Virus record (IMG/VR): IMGVR_UViG_3300005617_000117
Location: 38,815-102,814 of that record
DNA: 64,000 nucleotides
Reading direction: 5' to 3' (one strand)
From: a virus
Positions 1,735 to 57,661 of the stretch are shown here, piece after piece. Both the position numbers and the translations under genes were made by a program. Positions within the stretch are counted from its first letter, which is position 1. Every line of letters begins with the position of its first letter. Under the pieces are notes generated by a model. It worked only from the letters and a program-made list of their open reading frames with translations, was not told where the DNA came from and made no database searches.

Positions 1735-3651
1735 ATGGTTGTAGCTTCTGGAACCATCCCATATCAGTATGAGGGAATCTATCCCTTTAGAGTGCCCGAT
1801 AGTCGATCTGTCGGTTTTTCTGGTATTCTATACGAACAAACAATGACCGTCCATACAGCAGAATTATTTAGATTCTTTGGATCTGATGACGATCCGTTCG
1901 TGTTCCAGAAGTATTTTAATATTAATGCTGCCACAGAATTATTTACGCCTCGACCTGATGGTGCCAATCTTGACGGTCGTGTGAATGGTTTGCCCGCTGG
2001 ATCATTCTTCATGAACTATATTGAAGACATGCGGCAGAGCTTCTCGCTTATGTTCTCGTTTAGCAACGTCGATTTAGCCGGGAATATTTTAGCCTTTAAA
2101 AAGGACTGGCTTCTTTGGGTCGGAAGCATTAGCGGCACTCAAGGAGATTTTACAAGATCCTTAGAAACAATTAATTCTGGTCCAATTCTTAGTATGGATT
2201 TTGACGACGTTGGGGCTAGTGGCGTTCTTACCGATATTGACTTAAGAGAAGTGTCTTACCAGCCGTATTCAAGATGGGGCAAAACTCTATCTGTAACTTA
2301 TAACATTGCCTCGGTTAGACTCGGACCTATTTTCCCAGGCTTTATGTCTACCGCAGGACTGTTCGTTAATTTAAACTCCAGAGAACAAGCACTTAGCTTC
2401 ACGACTGGCGGGACAACTAGAACGTCGGCAGATTGGACCGCTGGACAAATGATATTAGATGGAGACATGTTCTTCTCTGATACAGATTTTGCCCTGGCCG
2501 CAGGAACGGCAACTCGTCAAACACTAGAAGGTGATATTTCTCATAACGCCTATCCGGTACTTTCACTTCCTGGCCGTGTATTTAGAAATCACTTAAATGG
2601 CACGGTAGATCCGCGTGCTCGGGCGATCGTAGATCCCATTCCGTTAGCCATTGGTGGATATGGTATTGGAGCAATCAATAGTTTATCTGCTCATCCTAAA
2701 TTAGTTGTACCATCGGGCACTTTAAGTTTTAGTCCACAATTATCCTATAACGGCACTCATCTTGGTAGCGGATTTTATGTGTTTGATAATAGTTTCTGGA
2801 TTGACCAAGACGAAATCCTTAATCCTTCCGGCCTAAGACTACTAAATCCTTTGGCCCCACCGTCATTCGTTTGGTTTAGAATTGCAGATCAAGCTAATGC
2901 ATTTGACGATCTCGGCGGCAACCACGCCTGGAGCACGCAGAACATGGTTGGTCTGATGGATAACGGCACAAACTATGTTAAAATGTCCACCATGCTTGCG
3001 ACAGCAGATGCCGACAGAAAGATGGGATTCTTCTCATATGATAAATCTACTCTAGACCTTGTTTCAGTAGATCAACCGGTTCAAGACTGGACAGTATTTA
3101 CTGCAACTATCTCTGTCCCTGGAGTTTTAGCTCATGCCTCGTGGGATGGTACTTACTACTACGCCTATACCCAAAGCGGATCTGGTCCTGCTAGAAATAT
3201 CTTCTTATTTGATAGCGGATTTATCCTGGCAGACTCTAAGTTTTATGGGGCACACACATTAACTTGGATTCAGGGCAATATATTTACTGGCGGCGTTTTC
3301 GGAGCCGTTGGAGATACGGTCTATGAACTATTAATAGATCCTGATCCTGGCAATGACATTGTTACTGATACTGGCATTGCTTATACTGTGGATGTTAGCG
3401 TTGCAGCGTGGCCAGCCAGTCATTCAAGCGTAGTAACTAAAATCTATCCGCCGAAACAAATTACTGGATCTCCTTATTTTACAGACGGTACATGGATGAT
3501 GGCTATTAATGGATCTAATGTAGTAGTTATGTTTAGAGGTGAATTATCTGGATCATCTATTGTACCACAGGAAGGGTTTGTTGTCAGTGCATTGGGTGCG
3601 GCGGTCACGGCAAGAGCCGGTTATGAGTTCGTATATGGCAACTTTACTTAG
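1735..3651 (+). CDS. Putative virion structural protein (beta-rich, possible propeller-like C-terminus)
   Basis: 638 aa, Lys-poor and G/S/T/aromatic-rich, 12 SG dipeptides. N-terminal ASGTIPY resembles GSGTVPY/GSGTIPN of the 48365 and 48882 proteins. Confidence 0.5.
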   Translation: MVVASGTIPYQYEGIYPFRVPDSRSVGFSGILYEQTMTVHTAELFRFFGSDDDPFVFQKYFNINAATELFTPRPDGANLDGRVNGLPAGSFFMNYIEDMRQSFSLMFSFSNVDLAGNILAFKKDWLLWVGSISGTQGDFTRSLETINSGPILSMDFDDVGASGVLTDIDLREVSYQPYSRWGKTLSVTYNIASVRLGPIFPGFMSTAGLFVNLNSREQALSFTTGGTTRTSADWTAGQMILDGDMFFSDTDFALAAGTATRQTLEGDISHNAYPVLSLPGRVFRNHLNGTVDPRARAIVDPIPLAIGGYGIGAINSLSAHPKLVVPSGTLSFSPQLSYNGTHLGSGFYVFDNSFWIDQDEILNPSGLRLLNPLAPPSFVWFRIADQANAFDDLGGNHAWSTQNMVGLMDNGTNYVKMSTMLATADADRKMGFFSYDKSTLDLVSVDQPVQDWTVFTATISVPGVLAHASWDGTYYYAYTQSGSGPARNIFLFDSGFILADSKFYGAHTLTWIQGNIFTGGVFGAVGDTVYELLIDPDPGNDIVTDTGIAYTVDVSVAAWPASHSSVVTKIYPPKQITGSPYFTDGTWMMAINGSNVVVMFRGELSGSSIVPQEGFVVSALGAAVTARAGYEFVYGNFT

Positions 3652-3662
3652 TGTAATTTAAT
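3650..3662 (+). promoter_or_regulatory. Candidate phage late-promoter motif AGTGTA + AT-rich tract
   Basis: AGTGTAATTTAAT overlaps the upstream TAG. AGTGTA also begins the intergenic regions at 48268 (+) and 58086 (-). Confidence 0.4.
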
Positions 3663-3667
3663 TATAC

Positions 3668-3730
3668 CCGGATGCCAGACGGTATCTCGTGGGACTTGCC
3701 CCGAAGGGCCACAGGCGTTCGGACTTACCG
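3668..3730 (+). ncRNA. Candidate structured RNA leader, copy 1
   Basis: P1 CCGGATGCC (3668-3676)/GGCGTTCGG (3714-3722); hairpin AGA-CGGTA-TCT (3677-3687); GCCC-CGAA-GGGC (3698-3709); loop CGGTA is complementary to TACCG (3726-3730). Confidence 0.5.
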
Positions 3731-3767
3731 ATAGCTAAGGTTTAAAAAGCCTTGGCTATTTTTATTT
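3731..3767 (+). terminator. Intrinsic terminator
   Basis: ATAGCTAAGGTTT-AAA-AAGCCTTGGCTAT forms a 13-bp stem (2 G-U), followed by TTTTATTT. Confidence 0.7.
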
Positions 3768-3782
3768 GATGGGAGATTTTTC

Positions 3783-4439
3783 ATGGTAAGCGGAATTAGA
3801 TTCGCAGGATGTTCTGGAGCGATGGGTGGACAGCCTAGCAATAGAGCGTTCCCCAACGGTCTAGAAGTATTTAATATGCAGCCTGGGGATACGTCTGCAC
3901 CTCTACGTGTAGGCTTCTTCGGTGCTGGAGGGGCTCCTAACGCCTCAGTAATCGTTGGCGAATACCAAGACCGCACCCACAGAACTAATCATAACGGGGC
4001 CGATTTAGGCGTCTTTATTAATAATAAATTCTCATCTTCTACGGTAGCAATTGTTTCTGGCGTTACGTTCCCCAACTTAATCGATATGCCAGCAAGTTCC
4101 GGTACTCTGATGTGCCGGTTTACAGAGCCAAGTGCTCAGCAAGTACAAACTCAGAACGCCACGTTCCGGGCGGTTTCATTTAACTCTAACTCAGGCGTTC
4201 CGAACATCGATGCTATTCCTGCTAACGTAACCGTACAGGCTTTCGAGCTAAAGAATACGGTTGGTGGTGCTGGCAACTCTTCATGGACTAATATTACCAG
4301 CGGAAGCAATGCCCTTGCACTTAATGCACAGGCTGCGACCGCAACGGTTCATGACTTTATAGTTGCCGTTTCTGCTTCTCCGACCGCTACGGGAACTAAT
4401 CGAGACTTCGGCTTCGCCGTAAGATTAGAATACTTCTAA
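3783..4439 (+). CDS. Putative virion structural protein
   Basis: 218 aa, A/G/N/S/T-rich, 6 SG dipeptides, GGGAG RBS upstream. Confidence 0.5.
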   Translation: MVSGIRFAGCSGAMGGQPSNRAFPNGLEVFNMQPGDTSAPLRVGFFGAGGAPNASVIVGEYQDRTHRTNHNGADLGVFINNKFSSSTVAIVSGVTFPNLIDMPASSGTLMCRFTEPSAQQVQTQNATFRAVSFNSNSGVPNIDAIPANVTVQAFELKNTVGGAGNSSWTNITSGSNALALNAQAATATVHDFIVAVSASPTATGTNRDFGFAVRLEYF

Positions 4440-40540: not shown

Positions 40541-40803
40541 TTACTTATGTCGAGTTAGTTTGCCCCGAATGCAATAAAAAGAGAATGATGCGAGAAGAGG
40601 GGCACAAGGTTTTGGACCGGAAAATTAAAAAGGAATTGCCCTCCGGCCAAACAATCGAACATTTCTATGATATTTGCGAAGTATGTGTGCGTCGCCTCAC
40701 AAAGTTATATTATACGCCCACTAAGGCGGATGCCAAGAAGGTGTTGGATGCCCTTGACGCGGGCCATTCCCTAGGAGACAAGAGCATTGAGGAACTTCTT
40801 TAA
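40537..40803 (+). CDS. Small zinc-finger protein
   Basis: CPEC...CEVC. Confidence 0.55.
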   Translation: MITYVELVCPECNKKRMMREEGHKVLDRKIKKELPSGQTIEHFYDICEVCVRRLTKLYYTPTKADAKKVLDALDAGHSLGDKSIEELL

Positions 40804-42020
40804 TGCCATACCACTCCAACTTTCAGCTTGACGATTTTCCAACCCCATACCTAACAACACATATCCCCAAAGAAGCCGACGTTATTATTGTCGGCGGCGG
40901 ACTGGCTGGCCTTTTAACTCTCTACTATCTCACGAAGTACACGAAACTCAGTGTCTATCTTTTAGAGGAGGGGGCTCTAGGCTTTCACGCCTCTGGTCGT
41001 GATATTGGCAGTGTCCATATGCTGGACTGGTTTTTGGCAAAGAAGTTAGTAGACAATCCAGAAGCGTACAAAAACTATATTCATTTGCTTAAAAGCAATC
41101 AAGACGAATTGCATAAACTAATTACGCACGAACAAATTCAGTGCGATTATGATAAGACCGGGGGCTTCTACGTTTCATCAGATGCAAAGGAGTCAGATTT
41201 TTTAATTAATCTGAACAAGACGCTATCAGCCATTGCCCCAAATGTTTTATGGCCAGCGAGAGTTGATGGCATTGCAACGATGCAACTCCTTGGTACTTCC
41301 TTCTTTATGGATTCTTTGTTCATTCCTAATGATTCGGTATTTTCAACGCAGAAATTTCTACATGGCGTGGCCAAGGTTTGCGAAAAGAACGAGCGTAGAA
41401 TCCTTACGAACTGCATTGTTGAAAATATTACACAGTCACAAGAAGGCATTAATATCCAAGTTAGAAATCGTGGCATGATTTCAACAAAAAATATAGTGTA
41501 TTGTACGGGGATATACACCGGCAAGGTTGTTCCCGGCGTAAACAAATTTCTATTAGCTCGTAAGCAGCACGTTATAGTTACTGAGAAGGTTGATAAAAAA
41601 CTTCTTGACAAATTGCCGCGTGCTGGTATAGTGTTCAATGGAATCAAATTAAAAGTTACCGATGATCGCGTGATGTTGCAAAGCCTGCCACTAAATTTGG
41701 CTGATCGCTTTTACGATGGCGAAATTAATATGCGGGCGTGCGACAATATGAAGAAGTTAATGCGACTAGTCTATCCCGAACTTAATAAGGTAGACGTAGA
41801 GTTTTTATGGAGTAAAATCACTTGCACAGGTGTTGATGGCCTACCAATATGTGGCGAAATTCATAATCGCCCCAAGGAATTTATCAATATTGGCTTTGGT
41901 ACATCTAATCTCAACTGTATCATGTTATGTGCAGCAGCAATTAAAGACATGATCGTTGGTAAATCAGTACCGGAACAACTAACTAAGTTATTCGATCCAC
42001 GAAGGGTAAACAATGTCTGA
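40803..42020 (+). CDS. FAD-dependent oxidoreductase (DAO/PuuB-like)
   Basis: DVIIVGGGLAG, E...GFHASGR, IVYCTG, DGLPICG, FDPRR. Confidence 0.82.
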   Translation: MPYHSNFQLDDFPTPYLTTHIPKEADVIIVGGGLAGLLTLYYLTKYTKLSVYLLEEGALGFHASGRDIGSVHMLDWFLAKKLVDNPEAYKNYIHLLKSNQDELHKLITHEQIQCDYDKTGGFYVSSDAKESDFLINLNKTLSAIAPNVLWPARVDGIATMQLLGTSFFMDSLFIPNDSVFSTQKFLHGVAKVCEKNERRILTNCIVENITQSQEGINIQVRNRGMISTKNIVYCTGIYTGKVVPGVNKFLLARKQHVIVTEKVDKKLLDKLPRAGIVFNGIKLKVTDDRVMLQSLPLNLADRFYDGEINMRACDNMKKLMRLVYPELNKVDVEFLWSKITCTGVDGLPICGEIHNRPKEFINIGFGTSNLNCIMLCAAAIKDMIVGKSVPEQLTKLFDPRRVNNV

Positions 42021-46133: not shown

Positions 46134-48269
46134 ATGCTCAGTTTATTACTCGCCCTAGTTCTAGCGTGCCCACAGTCAATTGATATTACGCCTAAATTAG
46201 TTCATATTCCGGCAGACAAAACGGCTGCCGGTACGTGGCCCAACTGGGATATGACGAACGTTGGATATACTTCTTATACCATTACATATAATTCTGGACC
46301 CAACGGGTTCTTAGCAAATGGTTTCATTGAAGTGGGATTTGGTTACGACCTCAAAGATGATGGTGTAACAAACGATCCTCATTACACGAGCAATCTCGAC
46401 TACATTATTATTCCTAATGATGGAGCTAGAGTAAGTCCGGTAGATCAATTTCAGATTTCTACTCCAAACGCAGCCAATTACGTTACTGTTTCTGCACCAG
46501 TCAACGTAACACTATCGTTAATACATAATTCGCACCCCGCCGAAAGAATGTTGAGAGTAACGTTTAATGCGGTAATGCCTGGAAATAGCACAGTTACCAT
46601 TACTTTCGGAGACACTTCTCAAGGCGGCCCAGGAGCATTACTACCTTGGAATCCTGGCAGACCTCGCCTCATTTGTTTTGAAAAACGTAATCCAAATAGC
46701 ACTCTGGTTGTGACGCAGCAGGATTTCCCCATCGTTCTATTTACAGCACAAACTGCTACGGCTTTCGTTGTAAACGCTCCGCTTGTAGTAGAAGTGGAAC
46801 AACCGTTTGAATTTATTGTACAGGCCGTCCAAGGTCGTGATGTTGGTCCAGACGCAGGCATGTCTCCAGTAGAAGATTTTACTGGTACTATTAATTGGTC
46901 AGCCGCAAATACTACGCTTTTCGGCTCACAAACCGATAGAACATTTAAAAGAATTGACCGTGGAGTTAAACGATACATTGGGATATGTCACTCTTTAGGG
47001 TTTACTAATATTGCTATTGATGCCGATGGTAGTAGTCAAGTTGCCAGTTCTGCAACAACGCTATCATATAGCAACCAAATAAAAGTGGTTCCTACTGGCT
47101 CTCCAGACAGGATTTACGTAGGAGATTTACAGAGACATTCTTGCGAAGGTGGCCATGCCGCCATTCCCGACTGGATGTGTTGGCGTGAACTCTATAGCTT
47201 GGGTGACGATTTCGGTACGGTGGTCGAGCATTCAGAGCTATTTTTCTTTGGTTGGCAGCACGCCAATAAAATCGCTCAAGACGTACAAGCGGCCCATCCG
47301 AATTTCGTTGTTTTTCCCGGCTATGAATATGGATTACCGGGGGCACATCGCCATGTGATTTTTAAGACATTTACTACAGATCCGGCATTGGCCGCAGGCA
47401 CTTCTGCATCGGCAGAACTTCCTCCGCCAGTGGTTGCCCCAACAGTAACAGATTTCTTGAATAATCTTCATAATCCTCCTACACCTTCTATTCCAAGGAT
47501 TGCTATTATTCATCATCCCCTATGGGACAAGTCGAATTTCCCTAATGCTCCGTTTGAATGGGGCCCCGATCTCGATGACTCTGTGCAGCGATTAGTTGAG
47601 ATTTATAGCACGCACGGTTCATCCGAAGTCAATCATACAAATCCTGGCCCATTTGATTATCCTATTGCTCATGACGCAGTTAACGGCGAAAGACCGGCAT
47701 CAGAGAACGCTTCTGTACGGGCCGCACTAAGCATGGGATATCGCTATGGTATTATTTGTGGTAGCGATAGACACGGCTACTACAGAAGTCAAAACGCTAA
47801 CGATGACGGTGCTGGCCCTTATACGAGGGCGGGCCTAGCTTTCGTTCATAGCCTTGAAGCTGGTTTGAGCACTAGAGATCGTATCTGGAATGGCTTCGAG
47901 AATCGTCATACGTATGGAACAACTGGCTCACGCATATATCTGAATTTCACAGCAAATGGATCATCTGTAGGTATGGGCGACCTTTATGATGGCCAAGACT
48001 TTCCTATCTTTAATATAGAAGTTGCTGCCGCCGGTCTAGCTCTGGATCATATTCCTAATATCACGGAAGTATCCATTATTCTAGATGGTACAAGCGTGGT
48101 GGTGGATTTTAATTATCCTGGGCAACCATTAGTCAATCAGAATTGGGTAGACCCCAACCCGATTAGAGACGGCCAATATCACTCTTATTATGTTAAAGTC
48201 CTACAGGATGACGGTCAAACGGCTTGGTCAAGCCCCATTTGGGTCAACCTTTCTCCCCAGGACCATTAG
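46134..48269 (+). CDS. Secreted PHP-family metallohydrolase (DUF3604/CehA-like)
   Basis: Hydrophobic N-terminus (LLLALVLAC); GDLQRHS, EHS, GYEY, HRHV, HHP, VEIYSTHG, GSDRH, TYGTTG, YYVKV.Q.DG..AWSSPIW. Confidence 0.75.
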   Translation: MLSLLLALVLACPQSIDITPKLVHIPADKTAAGTWPNWDMTNVGYTSYTITYNSGPNGFLANGFIEVGFGYDLKDDGVTNDPHYTSNLDYIIIPNDGARVSPVDQFQISTPNAANYVTVSAPVNVTLSLIHNSHPAERMLRVTFNAVMPGNSTVTITFGDTSQGGPGALLPWNPGRPRLICFEKRNPNSTLVVTQQDFPIVLFTAQTATAFVVNAPLVVEVEQPFEFIVQAVQGRDVGPDAGMSPVEDFTGTINWSAANTTLFGSQTDRTFKRIDRGVKRYIGICHSLGFTNIAIDADGSSQVASSATTLSYSNQIKVVPTGSPDRIYVGDLQRHSCEGGHAAIPDWMCWRELYSLGDDFGTVVEHSELFFFGWQHANKIAQDVQAAHPNFVVFPGYEYGLPGAHRHVIFKTFTTDPALAAGTSASAELPPPVVAPTVTDFLNNLHNPPTPSIPRIAIIHHPLWDKSNFPNAPFEWGPDLDDSVQRLVEIYSTHGSSEVNHTNPGPFDYPIAHDAVNGERPASENASVRAALSMGYRYGIICGSDRHGYYRSQNANDDGAGPYTRAGLAFVHSLEAGLSTRDRIWNGFENRHTYGTTGSRIYLNFTANGSSVGMGDLYDGQDFPIFNIEVAAAGLALDHIPNITEVSIILDGTSVVVDFNYPGQPLVNQNWVDPNPIRDGQYHSYYVKVLQDDGQTAWSSPIWVNLSPQDH

Positions 48270-48280
48270 TGTATTTAGAC
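48268..48280 (+). promoter_or_regulatory. Candidate phage late-promoter motif AGTGTA
   Basis: AGTGTATTTAGAC overlaps the upstream TAG, as at 3650. Confidence 0.4.
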
Positions 48281-48365
48281 AGGCGGTATCTAGTCTAGGT
48301 AGCGTCTGGTGAATTAAAATTCCTTGATTTTCTCCGGCCGCACCGTCTTTAGTAGGAGAAAGTCA
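48272..48365 (+). ncRNA. Candidate structured RNA leader, copy 2, with SD-sequestering hairpin
   Basis: P1 TATTTAGAC (48272-48280)/GTCTAGGTA (48293-48301); AGG-CGGTA-TCT (48281-48291); TGATTTTCTCC (48325-48335) pairs with GGAGAAAGTCA (48355-48365), covering the RBS and the A of the ATG. Confidence 0.5.
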
Positions 48366-48853
48366 TGCCGAGAGAAACTTCCGCCCTAATGGGGTCTGGA
48401 ACAGTCCCATATACTGCGGCCATTCTACATACAACGCTTGGTGGTACATTTGCTGGTACGTTAAGTGCCGGTGCGTCCGATGGACGCGGCGTTCGTACGG
48501 GAACGCAAGTCGTTGTTGCCAATCCAGAAGACCTTGTGTCCGTGCCAGTCATCCGTTGCTCAGGCATTACTGTTGGCACAGGGGCCGCTGTGAATATTTT
48601 AAGTCAATCAAGCCATGACGCTATTTTAAAGCGTGGTCGAATGGCTGAAATCGAGAATCTTGGCCCCGGCGATCTATTTATTGGTGGAACGGCCAATGTC
48701 ACTGCTGGCCTAGCTGGTGAATCTGGATTTAAGCTATTGGCTCCAGCGACCAACATTCCCCCACAAAGAGTCAAGATTCCGATTATGAATGGTGCCGACA
48801 TATGGGCCATCGCTCTAACGAGTGCTGCGGACGTAAGAATTCTGCTTTACTAA
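48365..48853 (+). CDS. Putative small virion protein (paralog of 48882)
   Basis: Shared GSGT.P, DGR, RTGT, NPED, N.GPG.(L/M)(F/Y)IG..NVT and D.RIL blocks. Confidence 0.55.
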   Translation: MPRETSALMGSGTVPYTAAILHTTLGGTFAGTLSAGASDGRGVRTGTQVVVANPEDLVSVPVIRCSGITVGTGAAVNILSQSSHDAILKRGRMAEIENLGPGDLFIGGTANVTAGLAGESGFKLLAPATNIPPQRVKIPIMNGADIWAIALTSAADVRILLY

Positions 48854-48881
48854 GTCGCATTCCAACTAAAGGAGGGCGGCT

Positions 48882-49328
48882 ATGGCAAAAGAATACGTTG
48901 CCGTAATAGGCTCTGGTACAATTCCAAATATTGGCCCGTTCGTTCCGGCCATGTCTGGTGCATTTCCTGACGGACGTTATCCTCAAGCTTTTCATCAAGG
49001 GAAAGCGTTTGGCCGTACAGGAACAGGTGCGATTATTCTCAACCCCGAAGATTTTTCAGTCTTCTTGGGTGTTAAATCGCAATCTATTCTAGTTGGTGGC
49101 ACAGCCGTTCCTTTACCCACTTCTCCGCTAGAGAATCGTCGGGCACTTGCTCTGCACAATAATGGCCCAGGAATAATGTATATTGGTGATATCAACGTTA
49201 CTACTCTGACAGGATACCCACTCGCAGTAAATGAGAAGATAGGATTAGATATCACCGGTAACGACAATGTTATTATATATAGCGTATCGGATAGTAGTTC
49301 TGATGCACGAATATTAGAATTGGCATAA
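48882..49328 (+). CDS. Putative small virion protein (paralog of 48365)
   Basis: Same blocks as 48365; AAGGAGG RBS. Confidence 0.55.
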   Translation: MAKEYVAVIGSGTIPNIGPFVPAMSGAFPDGRYPQAFHQGKAFGRTGTGAIILNPEDFSVFLGVKSQSILVGGTAVPLPTSPLENRRALALHNNGPGIMYIGDINVTTLTGYPLAVNEKIGLDITGNDNVIIYSVSDSSSDARILELA

Positions 49329-49331
49329 CTC

Positions 49332-50375
49332 ATGAGTATTGGTTTAGGTGGTCTAGTATCAGTAGGTGGTGGAACTGGCGGAAGCAGCGGAGGCTCCGGC
49401 AGCGGCATTACATCTATTAATGGCCAGCAAGGACCAGCAATTGTCGAGGTCGGTGTTAACGGAATTGTTGTTACTGCCGCAGGAAATCAAATAGTTTTTA
49501 ATGCGGCGGCCCTTTCTGGATTAATTGCTACAGCAACGGGCAGCGGAATCCGCGAAATTAACTCGCAAACGGGCCCCGCGATCCAAGTCAGCGGTATTAA
49601 CGGTATTGGCGTATCGCAGCCTCGCAGCAATTTCATTCTTATTGATTATGTTCCCCTTTCAGGGATCTTTGATATCAATGGAGAAGATGGCCCTCATATC
49701 GTCGTGGATGGCGTCAACGGTGCCTCTATAATCACCGGGACGGATCGATTGACTGTAGATGTGTCCGCTCTATCGGGTTTAATACAGACATTTACTGGCA
49801 GTGGCATCACAAGAATTAATGACCAACAGGGTCCAGAAATTCAAATCAGTGGTATTAATGGAATAGAAGTTACTCAGCCGCGAAGCAATTTCATATTGCT
49901 AGATGGGGCGGCCATTTCTGGAACAACTGGCGGCGGCGGCATGAACGCCTGTTACACCACATCATTTACTGGTGTGCTAGAACAGACATTCACTCACGCA
50001 CTTGGAACAAAAGCTATTGTTGTACAGATTCAAGATGAGAACGATGAATTTATAGAGGCCGACTTAATAACCTCTACCGATATCAATAATGTCACTATTA
50101 GGTTTAATCAACCACAATCCGGTAGATTGACTGTAGTTTCCTGTGGCGGGACTATAGCTACCAGTGGTGTAACTAAGTTTGCCGCATCGTTCTTAAATGT
50201 TACAAGCGGTCAATTTACGCACGGTTTCAGTACCAGGGACGTTCTAATTCAGGTCTATGACACTAATGGACCGCCAAGACAGCTTATGCCAGACGACATA
50301 ATACTAGATACCTTAGATACCATTAGTTTATTATTTAATGCGGCACAGTCGGGCAGAGTTGTGATTATGGGCTAA
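49332..50375 (+). CDS. Putative fibre/decoration protein with internal repeats
   Basis: Four SGI..IN...GP.I...G.NG repeats; two C-terminal TH......(V/I)Q..D...D......I.FN..QSGR domains; 15 SG dipeptides. Confidence 0.6.
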   Translation: MSIGLGGLVSVGGGTGGSSGGSGSGITSINGQQGPAIVEVGVNGIVVTAAGNQIVFNAAALSGLIATATGSGIREINSQTGPAIQVSGINGIGVSQPRSNFILIDYVPLSGIFDINGEDGPHIVVDGVNGASIITGTDRLTVDVSALSGLIQTFTGSGITRINDQQGPEIQISGINGIEVTQPRSNFILLDGAAISGTTGGGGMNACYTTSFTGVLEQTFTHALGTKAIVVQIQDENDEFIEADLITSTDINNVTIRFNQPQSGRLTVVSCGGTIATSGVTKFAASFLNVTSGQFTHGFSTRDVLIQVYDTNGPPRQLMPDDIILDTLDTISLLFNAAQSGRVVIMG

Positions 50376-50391
50376 TTTATGGGGACGATAC

Positions 50392-51159
50392 ATGACTAAA
50401 ATTAATGGCGATCTTATACCGTCAGCATCCGGTATAGCCAATCTTGGCGTTAATGGTAATGCAGTAGGGGCATACGACATAGCCTCGATTGCTCCGTTCG
50501 CCCACATTCACATGAACTCTGGAGTGTTTCATGATACTCTGGCGGGCGAAAGCGGCGTACTTCGTTATAGCCGTGCGGCCAGTGCGTTTCAGGTATCAGT
50601 CGATGGTGGTAAGACATTCAATAACATTTCTGCCGGAGCAGTAACGTCGATTGGTGTAATTGGCGGTGTAGACTTAACTGGTGCAGTCGATCTTGCGACC
50701 GTTGCCAGCGGCTTCATGACAATTCAGGATACTGGCGGGGCGAGCCCACTAGTTTTCTCCGTAGATACCCTTGGATTATCAGGACTGTTTAGATTCCCCA
50801 CTCAGGGCTTCAATGGTCGTGTTGTAAACGCCCTTACTGATACTAATGGCACGGAAGCACAAGGAGTTATTCAGGTCGCCGGTGTATCTGGTATTATCGC
50901 CGATCTTGTTGGGCAAGTTTTAAGTATTGGCCTTGGTAATAACGTTCCAAAATCGTTTGCTCAAACATTCGTATCTTCAAGTCCTTGGACGGTAACGCAC
51001 AATCTTAATAGTTTGAATGTCATCGTACAGACATTCGATGCTACGTCAGCTAGACTAGCTATTGAGCCAGACGATATTGAAATAACTGATGCTAATACAG
51101 TAACAATTAGATGGAATCAGGCACAGGCTGGACTCGTGGTGGTATTTGCAGCATTCTAA
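50392..51159 (+). CDS. Putative fibre/decoration protein
   Basis: C-terminal WTVTHNLNS..VIVQTFD domain related to those of 49332; 6 SG dipeptides. Confidence 0.6.
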   Translation: MTKINGDLIPSASGIANLGVNGNAVGAYDIASIAPFAHIHMNSGVFHDTLAGESGVLRYSRAASAFQVSVDGGKTFNNISAGAVTSIGVIGGVDLTGAVDLATVASGFMTIQDTGGASPLVFSVDTLGLSGLFRFPTQGFNGRVVNALTDTNGTEAQGVIQVAGVSGIIADLVGQVLSIGLGNNVPKSFAQTFVSSSPWTVTHNLNSLNVIVQTFDATSARLAIEPDDIEITDANTVTIRWNQAQAGLVVVFAAF

Positions 51160-51169
51160 TAGGTGATAG

Positions 51170-52333
51170 ATGAATAGATTAAATGGATATCTTGACAGCT
51201 TTGCTAGTCAAGCTGGTTACAGACAACACGGTGGAATTTGGAGCGGTATTTCCGTTGGAGATACTTTTATCCAATCAAGTGGTACTATTGGCGTTAGCGG
51301 TTATCGCAATGTCGAAATTCAGGTATTGGGCGGCAGCGGCGTATTAAAGTATGTTGGTGGGGCATATGAAGGTTGGCAAGTCAAGATGGCCAATCTTTCT
51401 CCAAATGCTGGATCTGGACAAAACGGATTTTTCCCTGTTGCTGTTTCTGGTATTTATAGCTTACAAGACGCTTATTATGCCAATCCTGATATAATGCTAG
51501 GGTCAAAAGCAACTTTCCGTGGCAACGATCAAATGACTATTACGGCCAATGATCGTAAGCTGATCTTTATCCAAGGACAAAGATCCCCAATAAATATCTC
51601 TGGTGCGTTAAAGGTTCCGATTGTTGGTGGCGTGAACTTGAATCTTACTGGCGATATTGCCATGTGCCATCACGCACAAGTAATGCAACCTAACTCATTT
51701 AGCTCGCCAGCAGATGATGCCGAAGCAGATGCAAGAGCACTTGGCCCAGGAACATTAACTGTCAATACTGGATCTGGTATTATTAATCTTTCAACCGGAT
51801 CTGGCATTGCCATGATTACTATGAAAGCCGACACACAATTACCATATCTATTAGATAACTGGGCCAGAATCGGCATGTCTGGTATGGCATCACAAGACGC
51901 CATGTTCGTGCCCAATATTATTGGCTCTGGTATTACATTCATGAATACTGGTATGTACTTGGTGAACTACAGTATTTCATTGCAGAAAGTGTTAAGCACT
52001 ACATCAAGAACTATTGCTATTAGGGCGGTCTTAAGAGATAAAGGTGGAGAAGGTGAGCAAAATAATGCCGGTGGAGCGTTAAATGGTTCGACTAAACTGG
52101 CTATTCCCGGCAGCATTGCATATGGAACCGTTACGAACGTTACGACGTTACCATTCTTTACTGTTAATAGTACATTCTTAGTTAATGCTACTGCTGGACA
52201 ATTCTTGGGGTTTGAGGCGGCTCAGGCCGGTACGGGTGCCGTCGCTGGTCAAACCGTTCTTGCCACTGCATCAGGCAGCAGGGCTATAGTTCAATACATT
52301 GGTCCAAGACGCACGTTTCCCGTTCTCGACTAA
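51170..52333 (+). CDS. Putative fibre protein with BclA/C1q-like C-terminal beta domain
   Basis: GITF.NTG.YLVNYSI...IPGS...LVN..AG pattern; 12 SG dipeptides. Confidence 0.55.
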   Translation: MNRLNGYLDSFASQAGYRQHGGIWSGISVGDTFIQSSGTIGVSGYRNVEIQVLGGSGVLKYVGGAYEGWQVKMANLSPNAGSGQNGFFPVAVSGIYSLQDAYYANPDIMLGSKATFRGNDQMTITANDRKLIFIQGQRSPINISGALKVPIVGGVNLNLTGDIAMCHHAQVMQPNSFSSPADDAEADARALGPGTLTVNTGSGIINLSTGSGIAMITMKADTQLPYLLDNWARIGMSGMASQDAMFVPNIIGSGITFMNTGMYLVNYSISLQKVLSTTSRTIAIRAVLRDKGGEGEQNNAGGALNGSTKLAIPGSIAYGTVTNVTTLPFFTVNSTFLVNATAGQFLGFEAAQAGTGAVAGQTVLATASGSRAIVQYIGPRRTFPVLD

Positions 52334-52344
52334 GGACGAACAAC

Positions 52345-52680
52345 ATGGTTTTACTTCTAGCTCTACTAACTGAATTTACATTTGGCGAATATGGAATTAT
52401 TGGATTAGCGTTTGCAGCAATGATTGCAATGCTCGGAAAGCAAATGCAATTTAGTAATAAAATGGCTGTCGAACACGCTAAGCGACGCGAAGAAGACCTT
52501 GACAAAATAAGTGCTGCTCTAATAATTATTCAGGAGCAGGGCAAGGCACAAACCGAAATGTGTAAAGAGGTTGTGTACTCAGCCAAAGAGGTTTCTGAAA
52601 ATCAGAAATTACTTGCCAAGGACATGAGCCTTGTGAGAGACTTAGTTATCCAGAAGTTACCGGATACTAAACAATCTTAG
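52345..52680 (+). CDS. Holin-like membrane protein
   Basis: N-terminal hydrophobic helix (EYGIIGLAFAAMIAML) followed by a coiled coil; last gene of the structural module. Confidence 0.45.
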   Translation: MVLLLALLTEFTFGEYGIIGLAFAAMIAMLGKQMQFSNKMAVEHAKRREEDLDKISAALIIIQEQGKAQTEMCKEVVYSAKEVSENQKLLAKDMSLVRDLVIQKLPDTKQS

Positions 52681-52915
52681 GTCTGGCCGTTTTCGGATCG
52701 TCTAGTTTACCCTGACGAAGCAAATCGCCCGCACGGGAAGCCTCTGGCGTCATAACTGCCGCACCATTTTTCTTGGTATTCTTGGGCGTTAGCGTATCCA
52801 TAATGTCGTCGCGTAGTTGACGAACAACTTCGTTCGGCACCTTAAAAGGTTCAAGTCGGGCACGGAGTAGATTCATAACGTCTGCATGTGGGTCATTTAC
52901 CATTGCTGTCTCCAA
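52667..52915 (-). CDS. Hypothetical protein
   Basis: 82 aa, terminal gene of the convergent - strand block. Confidence 0.5.
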   Translation of the reverse strand: METAMVNDPHADVMNLLRARLEPFKVPNEVVRQLRDDIMDTLTPKNTKKNGAAVMTPEASRAGDLLRQGKLDDPKTARPKIV

Positions 52916-56907: not shown

Positions 56908-57096
56908 TTAATTTCCAGTGAATGGCACCTTCGGACCAGCCTGCGTCCTAATCTGACGGACCTTACATTGATTACATCTTGCTACGGTCAGAACAACAAT
57001 ATCGATTTCGTCATTAGGATTTAAAGTGACTGCGTTTTCATCAATAATTATCTTGGCTTGGCAAGTGCGACATTCTCTAACTGTGACGGTTTTCAT
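56908..57096 (-). CDS. Small zinc-ribbon protein
   Basis: CRTC...CNQC. Confidence 0.55.
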   Translation of the reverse strand: MKTVTVRECRTCQAKIIIDENAVTLNPNDEIDIVVLTVARCNQCKVRQIRTQAGPKVPFTGN

Positions 57097-57661
57097 TTTT
57101 CTTTCTTCTCATTGTTCGACGCATCTTCTCAATCGTTTTATCTAGATGCTGGCTTATTGTTGCAGATGACACCTGGGTTAGTTCGGCAATATCCTTGACT
57201 TTAGCATCATTGAAGAATCTCTCATTTACTAGAGTCTTCTCATGCTCCGTGAGATCAGACATAAGATTGTCTAAGAAGTCGCGGCACTCTACTGATCCAA
57301 CGCCAGACATGCTTGGAATTTCGCCCACGACTTGTGGCGACTGATTACCGTCACCAAGTTCTAGATAAGACTCAATAGTGGGAGACGATGTATCGTTGCG
57401 GACCTTGCCTCGCAGCTTAGTCTGGCCCTTGATATACTTGAGTAGTTCGTGATACACGTAAGTATAGGCGTACGTAATAAACTTGACGCCCTTGTTCGGG
57501 TCAAAACCTTTATTGGCTTTTAGCAAAGCCAACCAAGCTTCCTGCTTTAGATCGTTTAAACCGCACGTAGCCCTATGAAGTTTTGCAATATTCGCAAAAG
57601 TAGAGGCCATCTTGTTTATGAGGGGTTCCCATTTGGTGGTGTCGAATTGTTCTGTGTACAT
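57077..57661 (-). CDS. RNA polymerase sigma-70 family factor
   Basis: DLKQEAWLALLKA...FDPNKGVKFITYA (region 2); LTEHEK.LV..RF...VKDIAEL..VS..TI (region 4). Confidence 0.88.
   Translation of the reverse strand: MYTEQFDTTKWEPLINKMASTFANIAKLHRATCGLNDLKQEAWLALLKANKGFDPNKGVKFITYAYTYVYHELLKYIKGQTKLRGKVRNDTSSPTIESYLELGDGNQSPQVVGEIPSMSGVGSVECRDFLDNLMSDLTEHEKTLVNERFFNDAKVKDIAELTQVSSATISQHLDKTIEKMRRTMRRKKNENRHS

Follow-up and report, generated by a model that had tools for sequence, protein, structure and literature searches.

The 64,000-nucleotide stretch of DNA analysed here (the window) comes from an uncultured soil phage that carries a DnaE-type polymerase. Its record of 103 kb is about 66% complete, and non-coding DNA makes up 5.6% of the genome. 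The clade to which the phage belongs is large and wholly uncultured; among 50,697 genomes of deposited phages there is no close DNA or protein match to it, and a search of genome contigs for relatives of the locus found none. At the locus, a gene of 711 aa is followed by a 100-base gap (48268-48367) and a six-gene operon that runs from 48365 to 52680 and is led by the gene of a 162-aa protein. The start codon at 48365 is backed by the N-terminus M-x-R-E, which is kept in 16 homologues of this protein (18 homologues in all, itself counted). An AlphaFold model of the 162-aa protein has a pLDDT of 67.5, and Foldseek together with a PDB profile search returned only weak matches, either generic jelly-roll or uncharacterised-phage proteins. 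The operon genes at 49332 and 50392 match the PHROG annotation 'virion structural protein'. Genes downstream in the operon carry their own ribosome-binding sites, and no terminator follows the 48268-48367 leader before the operon end. The features of the locus, and those elsewhere that bear on it, are listed below.

46134-48269, plus strand: upstream gene, 711 aa, whose stop codon TAG overlaps the promoter box
48267-48275, plus strand: promoter box TAGTGTATT, a probable single-element late promoter
48277-48283, plus strand: probable zone of the transcription start
48280-48308, plus strand: 5'-proximal stem-loop, CAGGCG/CGUCUG plus UAUCUA/UAGGUA, loop GUC
48309-48324, plus strand: A/U-rich linker GUGAAUUAAAAUUCCU, predicted to be mostly unpaired and single-stranded
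48325-48335, plus strand: anti-SD strand UGAUUUUCUCC, the 5' arm of the SD hairpin
48336-48354, plus strand: loop of the hairpin, with GGCCGC (48336-41), ACCGUCU (48342-48) and GUCUUU (48345-50)
48355-48365, plus strand: 3' arm of the hairpin, comprising SD GGAG (48355-58), spacer AAAGUC and the A of the start codon
48365-48853, plus strand: first operon gene, for an uncharacterised 162-aa protein whose N-terminus is disordered and whose C-terminal domain is jelly-roll-like
52680-52699: terminator-like hairpin at the operon end
57077-57661, minus strand: phage sigma factor with regions 2 and 4, a candidate for reading the box
1731-2318 of the genome, outside the window: second sigma-like candidate, region 2 only, the match falling below cut-off
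3649-3782, plus strand: a second leader ('copy 1'), with a box at 3649-55, an intrinsic terminator at about 3733-3768, an SD and an ATG at 3783

The earlier note proposed that RNA starts just after AGTGTA (48268-73). We find that this hexamer is part of a longer box, TAGTGTATT, at 48267-75, whose TAG is at the same time the stop codon that closes the 711-aa gene before it. The genome holds 11 copies of the box on the plus strand versus a single copy on the minus strand. Seven of the 11 lie inside the 5.6% of the DNA that is non-coding (P=5e-7 for intergenic enrichment), and eight stand directly 5' of plus-strand genes, seven of them in gaps and the eighth at the very 3' end of the ORF before; in at least five cases the TAG of the box serves as a stop codon. 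The same arrangement recurs in related phages. Among 34 distinct homologous loci whose start could be placed, with protein identities down to about 30%, 31 carry the box 49-101 nt 5' of the ATG, where it usually abuts a terminator hairpin. Elsewhere in these phages, 5' of other genes, copies number 37 on the plus strand versus 8 on the minus strand. The logo of the box reads as an invariant TAGTGTA and then TT, followed by an A/T-rich stretch of 6 nt and a G, and in the homologous loci it has no -35 partner. A short -10-like box that lacks a -35 element, is co-oriented with late genes and lies 5' of them has the form of a promoter read by a single-box phage sigma factor, and the phage does encode a sigma factor: the product of 57077-57661(-) scores 37.5 bits against Sigma70_r2 and 30 bits against r4, both above cut-off. 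Neither a T7-type RNA polymerase nor beta/beta' subunits were detected in this phage. TAGTGTATT is probably the single-box late promoter of the phage, and at 48267-75 it would serve as such while sharing bases with the stop codon that ends the upstream gene. The reader of the box is most likely the host RNA polymerase together with a phage sigma factor, which may be either of the two candidates. The analysis adds independent, cross-phage evidence for TAGTGTATT as the late promoter of the clade, and because the box behaves as a phage promoter, an RNA start just after AGTGTA is supported.

Transcription would probably begin at about 48277-83, within a few bases. This placement follows from the A/T stretch and the G that come after the box, from the short-leader promoters of the clade, in which the SD can start only 8 nt past the box, and from the analogy with phiEco32, where +1 lies nine nt past the box (PMC12276001). 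The close clade is sampled by three sequences, L001, L021 and L022; protein identity to the window is 78% for L001 and 56% for L021. Hairpins in L021, in L022 and at genome position 7922 begin 2-5 nt past the box and would be cut by a start so placed; a 5'-terminal stem-loop is therefore no general rule here. The -10-like repeat TAGTCTA (48290-96) was also considered, as a sigma-dependent pause site, and is not kept in L001.

From such a start the message would open with a stable stem-loop at 48280-48308, of the type that shields 5' ends from decay, and it may play a stabilising role here. The stem-loop belongs to the MFE structure, with a pair probability of 0.78-0.96, and folds alone at -15.0 kcal/mol, its L001 counterpart at -15.1 kcal/mol. 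The sole variable position of the stem is G48283, where G.U becomes A-U in L001 and in a metagenome variant, G48283A, the one variant of the leader that contigs from four DNA sequencing runs contain. Next would come a conserved A/U-rich single-stranded stretch. Together with 48299-48308 this linker makes up the block GTAGCGTCYGGTGAWTWAAA, which the window, L001 and L021 all retain, and the linker may act as a ribosome standby or S1 site. GAATTAAAA, tried as a motif common to late leaders, is not specific.

The earlier note folded this region differently. All of the complementarities that it described can be read directly in the DNA where it placed them, yet only one of them, the SD hairpin treated below, stands up to testing. 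A helix termed P1, of nine base pairs (two of them G.U), can be drawn between TATTTAGAC (48272-80) and GTCTAGGTA (48293-301) around AGGCGGTATCTA. Its pair probability is 0.001-0.19, as against that of the competing stem-loop at 48280-48308, and it is broken in L001 and absent in L021. A proposed switch, in which ACCGTCT of the hairpin loop (48342-48) meets AGGCGGT (48281-87), likewise exists as a complementarity (one G.U) but not as a predicted pairing: it has a probability of about 0 and can be imposed only at a cost of 7.9 kcal/mol, and neither L001 nor L021 has the loop complement.

From these elements a T4-style lock had been built, whereby RNA reading through from upstream forms P1 and stays silent, whereas RNA that starts just after AGTGTA lacks the 5' strand of P1, and its AGGCGGU invades the ACCGUCU loop and opens the SD. 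Several facts accord with such a lock. The SD and the AUG are predicted to be sequestered in an RNA helix, the late RNA proposed here would lack most of 48272-80, in neither the window nor L001 does a terminator separate the leader from the upstream gene, and the 7-nt complementarity is real. However, P1 is hardly predicted to form in the long RNAs, the invading pairing is costly, as given above, and both P1 and ACCGUCU are lost in the two relatives. Rather than being freed in the short RNA, AGGCG is held with CGUCU (48303-07) in the -15 kcal/mol hairpin, which is kept in L001, and this holds in long and short RNAs alike. The geometry is also at odds with the model, the box lying 52 nt 5' of the inhibitory strand and the proposed start about 45 nt 5' of 48325-35. 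Given that both strands of the SD hairpin are 3' of the proposed start, long and short RNAs carry the same block. Moreover, L021 keeps the SD hairpin despite a terminator 7 nt before its box, which would stop read-through. We regard the lock as very unlikely.

A riboswitch family, with one core on two platforms, had been suggested as well, since the 12-mer CAGRCGGTATCT occurs both in copy 1 (3676-87) and at 48280-91 in the leader under study, copy 2. Widened to an antiterminator like HK022 put, this reading holds that the two copies share a core set before a terminator in copy 1 and before the RBS hairpin in copy 2. The 12-mer is indeed common to two leaders just 3' of the same promoter box, and copy 1 is strongly structured (z=-5.2) and runs into a conserved terminator, whose stem is kept with a compensatory change in a sister phage (L052:794-915). 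But the structural role of the 12-mer differs between the copies: in copy 2 it is the 5' arm of the stem-loop at 48280-48308, whereas in copy 1 it forms the loop and 3' arm of a GGAUGCC/GGUAUCU stem, or lies inside a different helix. Its distances from the box in the two copies are 6 and 20 nt, it reads CAGATGGCGTCT in copy 1 of the sister phage (3 of 12 positions changed), and a 12-mer with at most one mismatch turns up in 18 of 300 shuffles (6%) of eight promoter-proximal leaders. We find no conserved aptamer core with covarying helices, P1 being unconserved, no single core fold on alternative platforms, no mutually exclusive pairing of core and SD hairpin, and no match in an Rfam search at E<=1. 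As for a put-type element, in which two conserved promoter-proximal stem-loops act on terminators 3' of them, the copies have only 12 nt in common, and these in different structures, and copy 2 lacks a terminator before the operon end. The genes served are those of a virion-associated operon, and the metabolic gene context of a riboswitch is absent, which counts against a riboswitch. The 48268-48367 leader is not a riboswitch, and the reading as a whole, put-like antitermination included, is already largely refuted and carries only a slight chance of being right. As to copy 1 RNA acting as a trans-activator of copy 2, the energy of the duplex is matched or beaten by 31% of shuffles.

The SD-sequestering hairpin of the earlier note is borne out. 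TGATTTTCTCC at 48325-35 pairs with GGAGAAAGTCA at 48355-65 over 11 bp, one of them G.U, burying GGAG and the A of the ATG at 48365. Its probability is 0.97 while the RNA ends at 48372. Once codons 3-5 are included, a second, nearer anti-SD (GUCUUU) pairs with the SD with a probability of 0.8, and the SD is paired in the alternative fold also. Alone, the hairpin of the window folds at -14.3 kcal/mol versus -8.8 +/- 2.6 in shuffles (p=0.03), and the homologous hairpins of L001 (-16.8 kcal/mol) and L021 (-13.6 kcal/mol) lie beyond shuffles with p=0.006 and 0.008, respectively. The loop sequence GGCCGC is conserved as GGYCGC. Compensatory changes of U-A to C-G are found at pair 6 in L001 and at pair 7 in L021, such that in both relatives a C of the pyrimidine arm tracks a G in the purine spacer. 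Pair tables were taken from per-sequence folds, as MAFFT misaligned the 3' arms. These comparisons indicate that the SD hairpin is under selection in the nearest relatives.

A question arises, could the promoter be the only functional element, the stem-loops being incidental folds of a pyrimidine-rich leader facing an SD and spacer rich in purines, and not selected for any role? The hairpin of the window is only marginally beyond shuffles, and comparable occlusion of the SD is predicted for roughly 15% of the genes of the genome. The long hairpin is present in only three close sequences, those of the window, L001 and L021, and the distant relatives are without it: RNAalifold yields no consensus structure for about 30 of them, and their SD occlusion is not above shuffles, from which we take the hairpin to be a clade-specific addition. 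A long-range GGUC/GACC pair in the distant relatives is no better than column shuffles (99/500). A search of viral contigs with a 16-nt leader pattern gave at least 117 matches, about the chance rate by our own estimate, of which only the L001 contig is relevant. Nevertheless, incidental folding is at odds with two double compensatory changes that are independent of each other, and with the retention of hairpins of -14 to -17 kcal/mol in relatives of only 56-78% protein identity, and we consider a functional promoter with idle structure to be distinctly unlikely.

For a gene that has a late promoter to itself, an RBS hairpin of -14 kcal/mol is unexpectedly strong. In addition, the blocks GTAGCGTCYGGTGAWTWAAA and CTCCGGYCGC, marked by the sequences GUAGCGUCUGG and CCGGCCGC, are left unexplained by the account favoured below. 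A rival reading is a translational operator, in which GUAGCGUCYGG (48299-48309) and CUCCGGYCGC (48332-41) form an alternative helix or pseudoknot in competition with the SD hairpin, the balance being shifted by a phage protein, possibly the product of the operon, or by another signal. The clade of the window, L001 and L021 would then have added a module of 45 nt to an ancestral short leader, its blocks GUAGCGUCYGGUGAWUWAAA and CUCCGGYCGC constituting an operator, or an alternative helix or pseudoknot, by which a phage factor unlocks an otherwise closed RBS late in infection. Both blocks are kept in the three sequences while the surrounding leader diverged; pairing of GCGUCUGG with CCGGCCGC is possible in all three, and in L021 a change of U to C replaces U.G by C-G; L021 retains the first block without its 5' stem partner; and a hairpin of this strength seems to require some means of opening. 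On the other hand, the alternative helix contains an internal mismatch that is fixed, and it lies 5.3 kcal/mol above the MFE, the comparison comprises only three sequences, no candidate RNA-binding protein was identified, and the conserved sequence could serve other ends. Such an operator is a tentative idea and on balance improbable; if true, the unlocking module would add to the translational control of phages an element that is new and has no relation to any Rfam family.

We favour, at a probability of roughly 0.6, an account of 48268-48367 that consists of a promoter, a start-of-message stem-loop and a throttling RBS hairpin. The 11-bp hairpin would hold the SD and the first base of the start codon, throttling rather than switching translation of the first gene. 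The 100-base gap most likely holds the promoter of a virion-gene operon together with the untranslated leader, and its control is most likely of an ordinary kind of phage gene regulation. The analysis removes a false riboswitch lead and maps a late transcription unit comprising box, probable start, 5' stem-loop and RBS hairpin. Given the signs of selection in the nearest relatives, reporter experiments that ask how phages balance the quantities of their different virion proteins could reasonably be aimed at the RBS hairpin.

Several known systems share parts of this arrangement. In phage Mu, Com activates translation of mom, a late gene whose RBS is locked in a hairpin. The locus here resembles mom in having a late-gene RBS locked in a hairpin that would need opening, a model that pertains only to the operator described above; the analysis identified neither a Com-like protein nor a binding site. 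The 5' UTR stabiliser of E. coli ompA consists of a 5'-terminal stem-loop, a single-stranded A/U segment and a second hairpin beside the RBS. The predicted order is the same here, a stem-loop at or near +1, an A/U-rich linker and an RBS-proximal hairpin, but the RBS of ompA is accessible whereas here it lies inside the second hairpin. In the T4 genes e, soc, 49 and I-TevI the late promoter sits within or at the 5' strand of the helix, and transcripts made late, which for this reason are without the strand, are translated (PMC3014915). As in these genes, the SD and start codon of a late gene lie in a local helix near a short single-box late promoter; unlike in T4, the box here is 52 nt 5' of the helix strand, every transcript carries the whole hairpin, and the relative L021 retains the hairpin behind a terminator. 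The closest parallel to the box itself is with the phiEco32 sigma factor gp36, whose middle and late promoters contain AATGTA centred at -11.5 (PMC12276001). Both systems have a single short -10-like box without a -35 before late genes and a phage-encoded sigma factor, and AGTGTA matches AATGTA at five of six positions. T4 gp55 with TATAAATA is likewise of the single short -10-like box type (PMC3014915). In promoters of this type, transcripts are expected to start at a fixed 6-9 nt past the box and to depend on the phage sigma factor. What sets the present phage apart from both phiEco32 and T4 gp55 is the box itself, TAGTGTATT, which very frequently lies right beside a terminator hairpin or also provides a stop codon.

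The leader of the 162-aa gene is best read, from predicted folds and comparison among phages, as a putative promoter, a 5' stem-loop, a linker and an RBS hairpin, in that order. The 102,814-bp IMG/VR virus record, of which the window is the final 64 kb (completeness estimate 66%), encodes a DnaE-type polymerase, DnaB-like helicase, primase, UvsX-like recombinase, ribonucleotide reductase, ThyX and many glycosyltransferases. Deposited phage genomes searched with it gave no match in DNA or protein, and rhizosphere and groundwater metagenomes contain near-identical DNA. The gene and the end of its operon are:

48365-48853, + strand: gene of the 162-aa protein, directly after the gap, leading six closely packed genes
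52680-52699: terminator-like hairpin, end of the six-gene run

A 'virion structural protein' family is the match for two of these six genes. Counting itself, the 162-aa protein belongs to a set of 18 homologues, and their common N-terminus, M-x-R-E, confirms the start codon at 48365. A generic jelly-roll fold with a disordered N-terminus is predicted, and fold comparison gave no assignable function.

On the genome's + strand the sequence TAGTGTA is found 11 times, on the - strand once. Eight of the 11 copies closely precede + strand genes, seven in gaps and one in the final bases of the preceding ORF, and seven lie within the non-coding 5.6% of the genome (P=5e-7). Among 49 homologous loci collected for the 162-aa gene, 34 are distinct and have a placeable start codon; 31 of these carry TAGTGTA 49-101 nt upstream of the ATG, even where protein identity falls to ~30%. 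In most of the 31 the box directly adjoins a G+C-rich terminator-like hairpin, and it is followed by TT, ~6 A/T-rich bases and then G. These phages have a further conserved gene, 1.3-4 kb downstream, with the box ahead of it as well (37 + strand sites versus 8 on the - strand). No -35 partner for the box was found. The best-supported reading of these sequence patterns is that AGTGTA is a promoter box of the single-box late type. It resembles AATGTA, centred at -11.5 in promoters of the phiEco32 sigma factor gp36 (PMC12276001). Given this analogy, and that short-leader promoters of the box have an SD as early as 8 nt after it, transcription probably starts at ~48277-48283. The earlier note had RNA starting just after AGTGTA; the box does behave as a promoter, the start position itself being what we infer. 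Two candidates might read it:

window 57077-57661, - strand: sigma factor, regions 2 and 4
genome 1731-2318, + strand: weaker sigma-like ORF, region 2 only, below the Pfam cut-off, ahead of packaging genes

Neither a T7-type nor a multisubunit RNA polymerase was detected in the record or in that of the sister phage. The junction with the terminator was viewed in the 20-30 nt before TAGTGTA of the homologous loci and at genome 32045-32077. In most relatives the terminator-like hairpin ends 1-2 nt upstream of the box, so that terminator tail and promoter overlap; this genome has at least five boxes whose TAG instead ends the gene before it. Within an ORF of the window (40803-42020) lies an intragenic TAGTGTATTGTA (41494-41500), which several distant relatives keep in a homologous gene located ~3.5 kb before that of the 162-aa protein (L002:451, L014:125, L017:331, L028:480, L030:449). 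An internal promoter and a conserved coding motif (V-Y-C) are the two explanations for it.

The SD-sequestering hairpin described in the earlier note is present: 11 bp with one G.U (48325-48335/48355-48365) cover GGAG (48355-48358) and the A of the ATG at 48365, with a predicted -14.3 kcal/mol for the hairpin alone. The SD is paired in all predicted ensembles from the inferred start, its partner being the far strand 48325-48335 (probability 0.97) as long as the RNA stops at 48372; when codons 3-5 are included, it shifts to the nearer strand GUCUU (48346-48350) and the far strand pairs with coding-region GAGAGAAA. The close relatives compared were L001 (the 164-kb sister phage, 78% protein identity), L021 (56%) and L022 (50%). 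L001 and L021 keep the hairpin, start codon enclosed, at -16.8 (p=0.006) and -13.6 kcal/mol (p=0.008) versus shuffles. Distant relatives show no SD occlusion beyond shuffles. The lone G of the purine spacer, at -3 (window), -5 (L001) and -4 (L021) from the AUG, faces U, C and C, respectively, so that U-A has twice, and independently, become C-G by a double change. Because L021 keeps the hairpin behind a strong terminator 7 nt upstream of the box, it cannot serve solely to silence read-through RNA.

Upstream, the minimum free energy (MFE) fold pairs CAGGCG (48280-48285) with CGUCUG (48303-48308) and UAUCUA (48287-48292) with UAGGUA (48296-48301), a 5' stem-loop of -15.0 kcal/mol in isolation. 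P1, the helix earlier placed around AGGCGGTATCTA, has the complementarity claimed for it (48272-48280/48293-48301, 9 bp, two G.U), but is absent from the MFE fold: in RNAs from 48150, 48230 or 48268 its probability is 0.001-0.19 versus 0.78-0.96 for the 5' stem-loop. Its strands in L001, UAUUGAUC and GUAAGGUA, do not pair, and L021 has neither. The L001 stem-loop (-15.1 kcal/mol) has a single stem change, G48283 to A, turning G.U into A-U; a natural variant of the window's own phage, on a contig from a groundwater metagenome, shows this change too and no other difference across 361 nt. Likewise, ACCGTCT (48342-48348) in the SD hairpin loop is complementary to AGGCGGT (48281-48287), as the proposed switch would have it, but forcing this pairing costs 7.9 kcal/mol, its probability is essentially zero, and the loop complement is ACCCUGU in L001 and absent from L021.

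Some features are unaccounted for by the four-part reading. Conservation across the window, L001 and L021 extends to two blocks, GTAGCGTCYGGTGAWTWAAA and CTCCGGYCGC, which can pair together, 5.3 kcal/mol above the MFE; L021 retains the first although its stem partner is lost; and an RBS hairpin of -14 kcal/mol is strong for a gene owning a late promoter. With these features an operator worked by a factor is conceivable, but we consider it unlikely. In L022 a perfect 14-bp palindrome, TACCTTATAAGGTA (L022:1062-1075), begins 2 nt past the box, too near to fall wholly inside the inferred transcript; it may therefore function in the DNA, as an operator, instead of folding as an RNA hairpin.

Distant relatives have a shorter leader, ~45 nt, with conserved GGTC-NN-GTTT-N-GTTT and then GTCYCTTTT before the SD, and no consensus structure was found in it. 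This motif, 40-60 nt before the homologue's ATG in ~30 distant phages (33-40% protein identity; loci within L002-L049), seems more conserved than the protein and is absent from other TAGTGTA-led genes. It might enhance translation of this gene specifically, or bind a protein. Two examples are:

L011:3925-3980: leader motif
L017:3920-3974: leader motif

This short leader is presumably ancestral, and the loop and 3' arm of the hairpin in the window (GGCCGC...CCGTCTTTAGTAGGAG) resemble it. The clade of the window therefore seems to have added the 5' stem-loop, the linker and the far anti-SD strand.

Do the two leaders share a core? The other one is:

3649-3782, + strand: copy 1, with TAGTGTA over the upstream gene's stop, CAGACGGTATCT at 3676-3687, a terminator, and the ATG at 3783

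The surrounding genes are unrelated to those of copy 2. Copy 1 is heavily structured (z=-5.2), and a strong intrinsic terminator follows the box by ~85 nt, only then the SD. In the sister phage (L052:794-915), where an additional ~190-aa ORF separates leader and gene, a compensatory change preserves the terminator stem. Copy 1 could be an attenuator requiring antitermination or a ~100-nt small RNA. Its 12-mer contributes loop and 3' arm to a GGAUGCC/GGUAUCU stem, or sits within a different long-range helix, whereas copy 2 has it as the 5' arm of two stacked stems; it lies 20 nt from the box versus 6 nt. In the sister phage it reads CAGATGGCGTCT, with three changes, the local stem being preserved there. 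When the genome's eight promoter-proximal leaders were shuffled, 18 of 300 shuffles produced a 12-mer match with one mismatch or none, and Rfam gave no family at E<=1 for either leader. Given these differences, a common aptamer is rejected, and with it the riboswitch-like core on two platforms; the likeness is a common promoter box plus a short match, either chance or the remnant of a duplicated promoter cassette.

In the four-part reading, a single-box late promoter would drive a leader opening with a stable stem-loop. Stem-loops of the ompA type protect 5' ends, and this one is probably such a protector. The conserved A/U-rich linker may provide a ribosome standby site, and the RBS hairpin would reduce initiation at the first gene. 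The nearest named precedent is the lock of T4 e, soc, 49 and I-TevI, in which the siting of the late promoter leaves the inhibitory 5' strand out of late RNA (PMC3014915). The T4-style lock of the earlier note fails here on that defining feature, because the box is 52 nt upstream of the inhibitory strand, and on the retention of the hairpin behind the L021 terminator.
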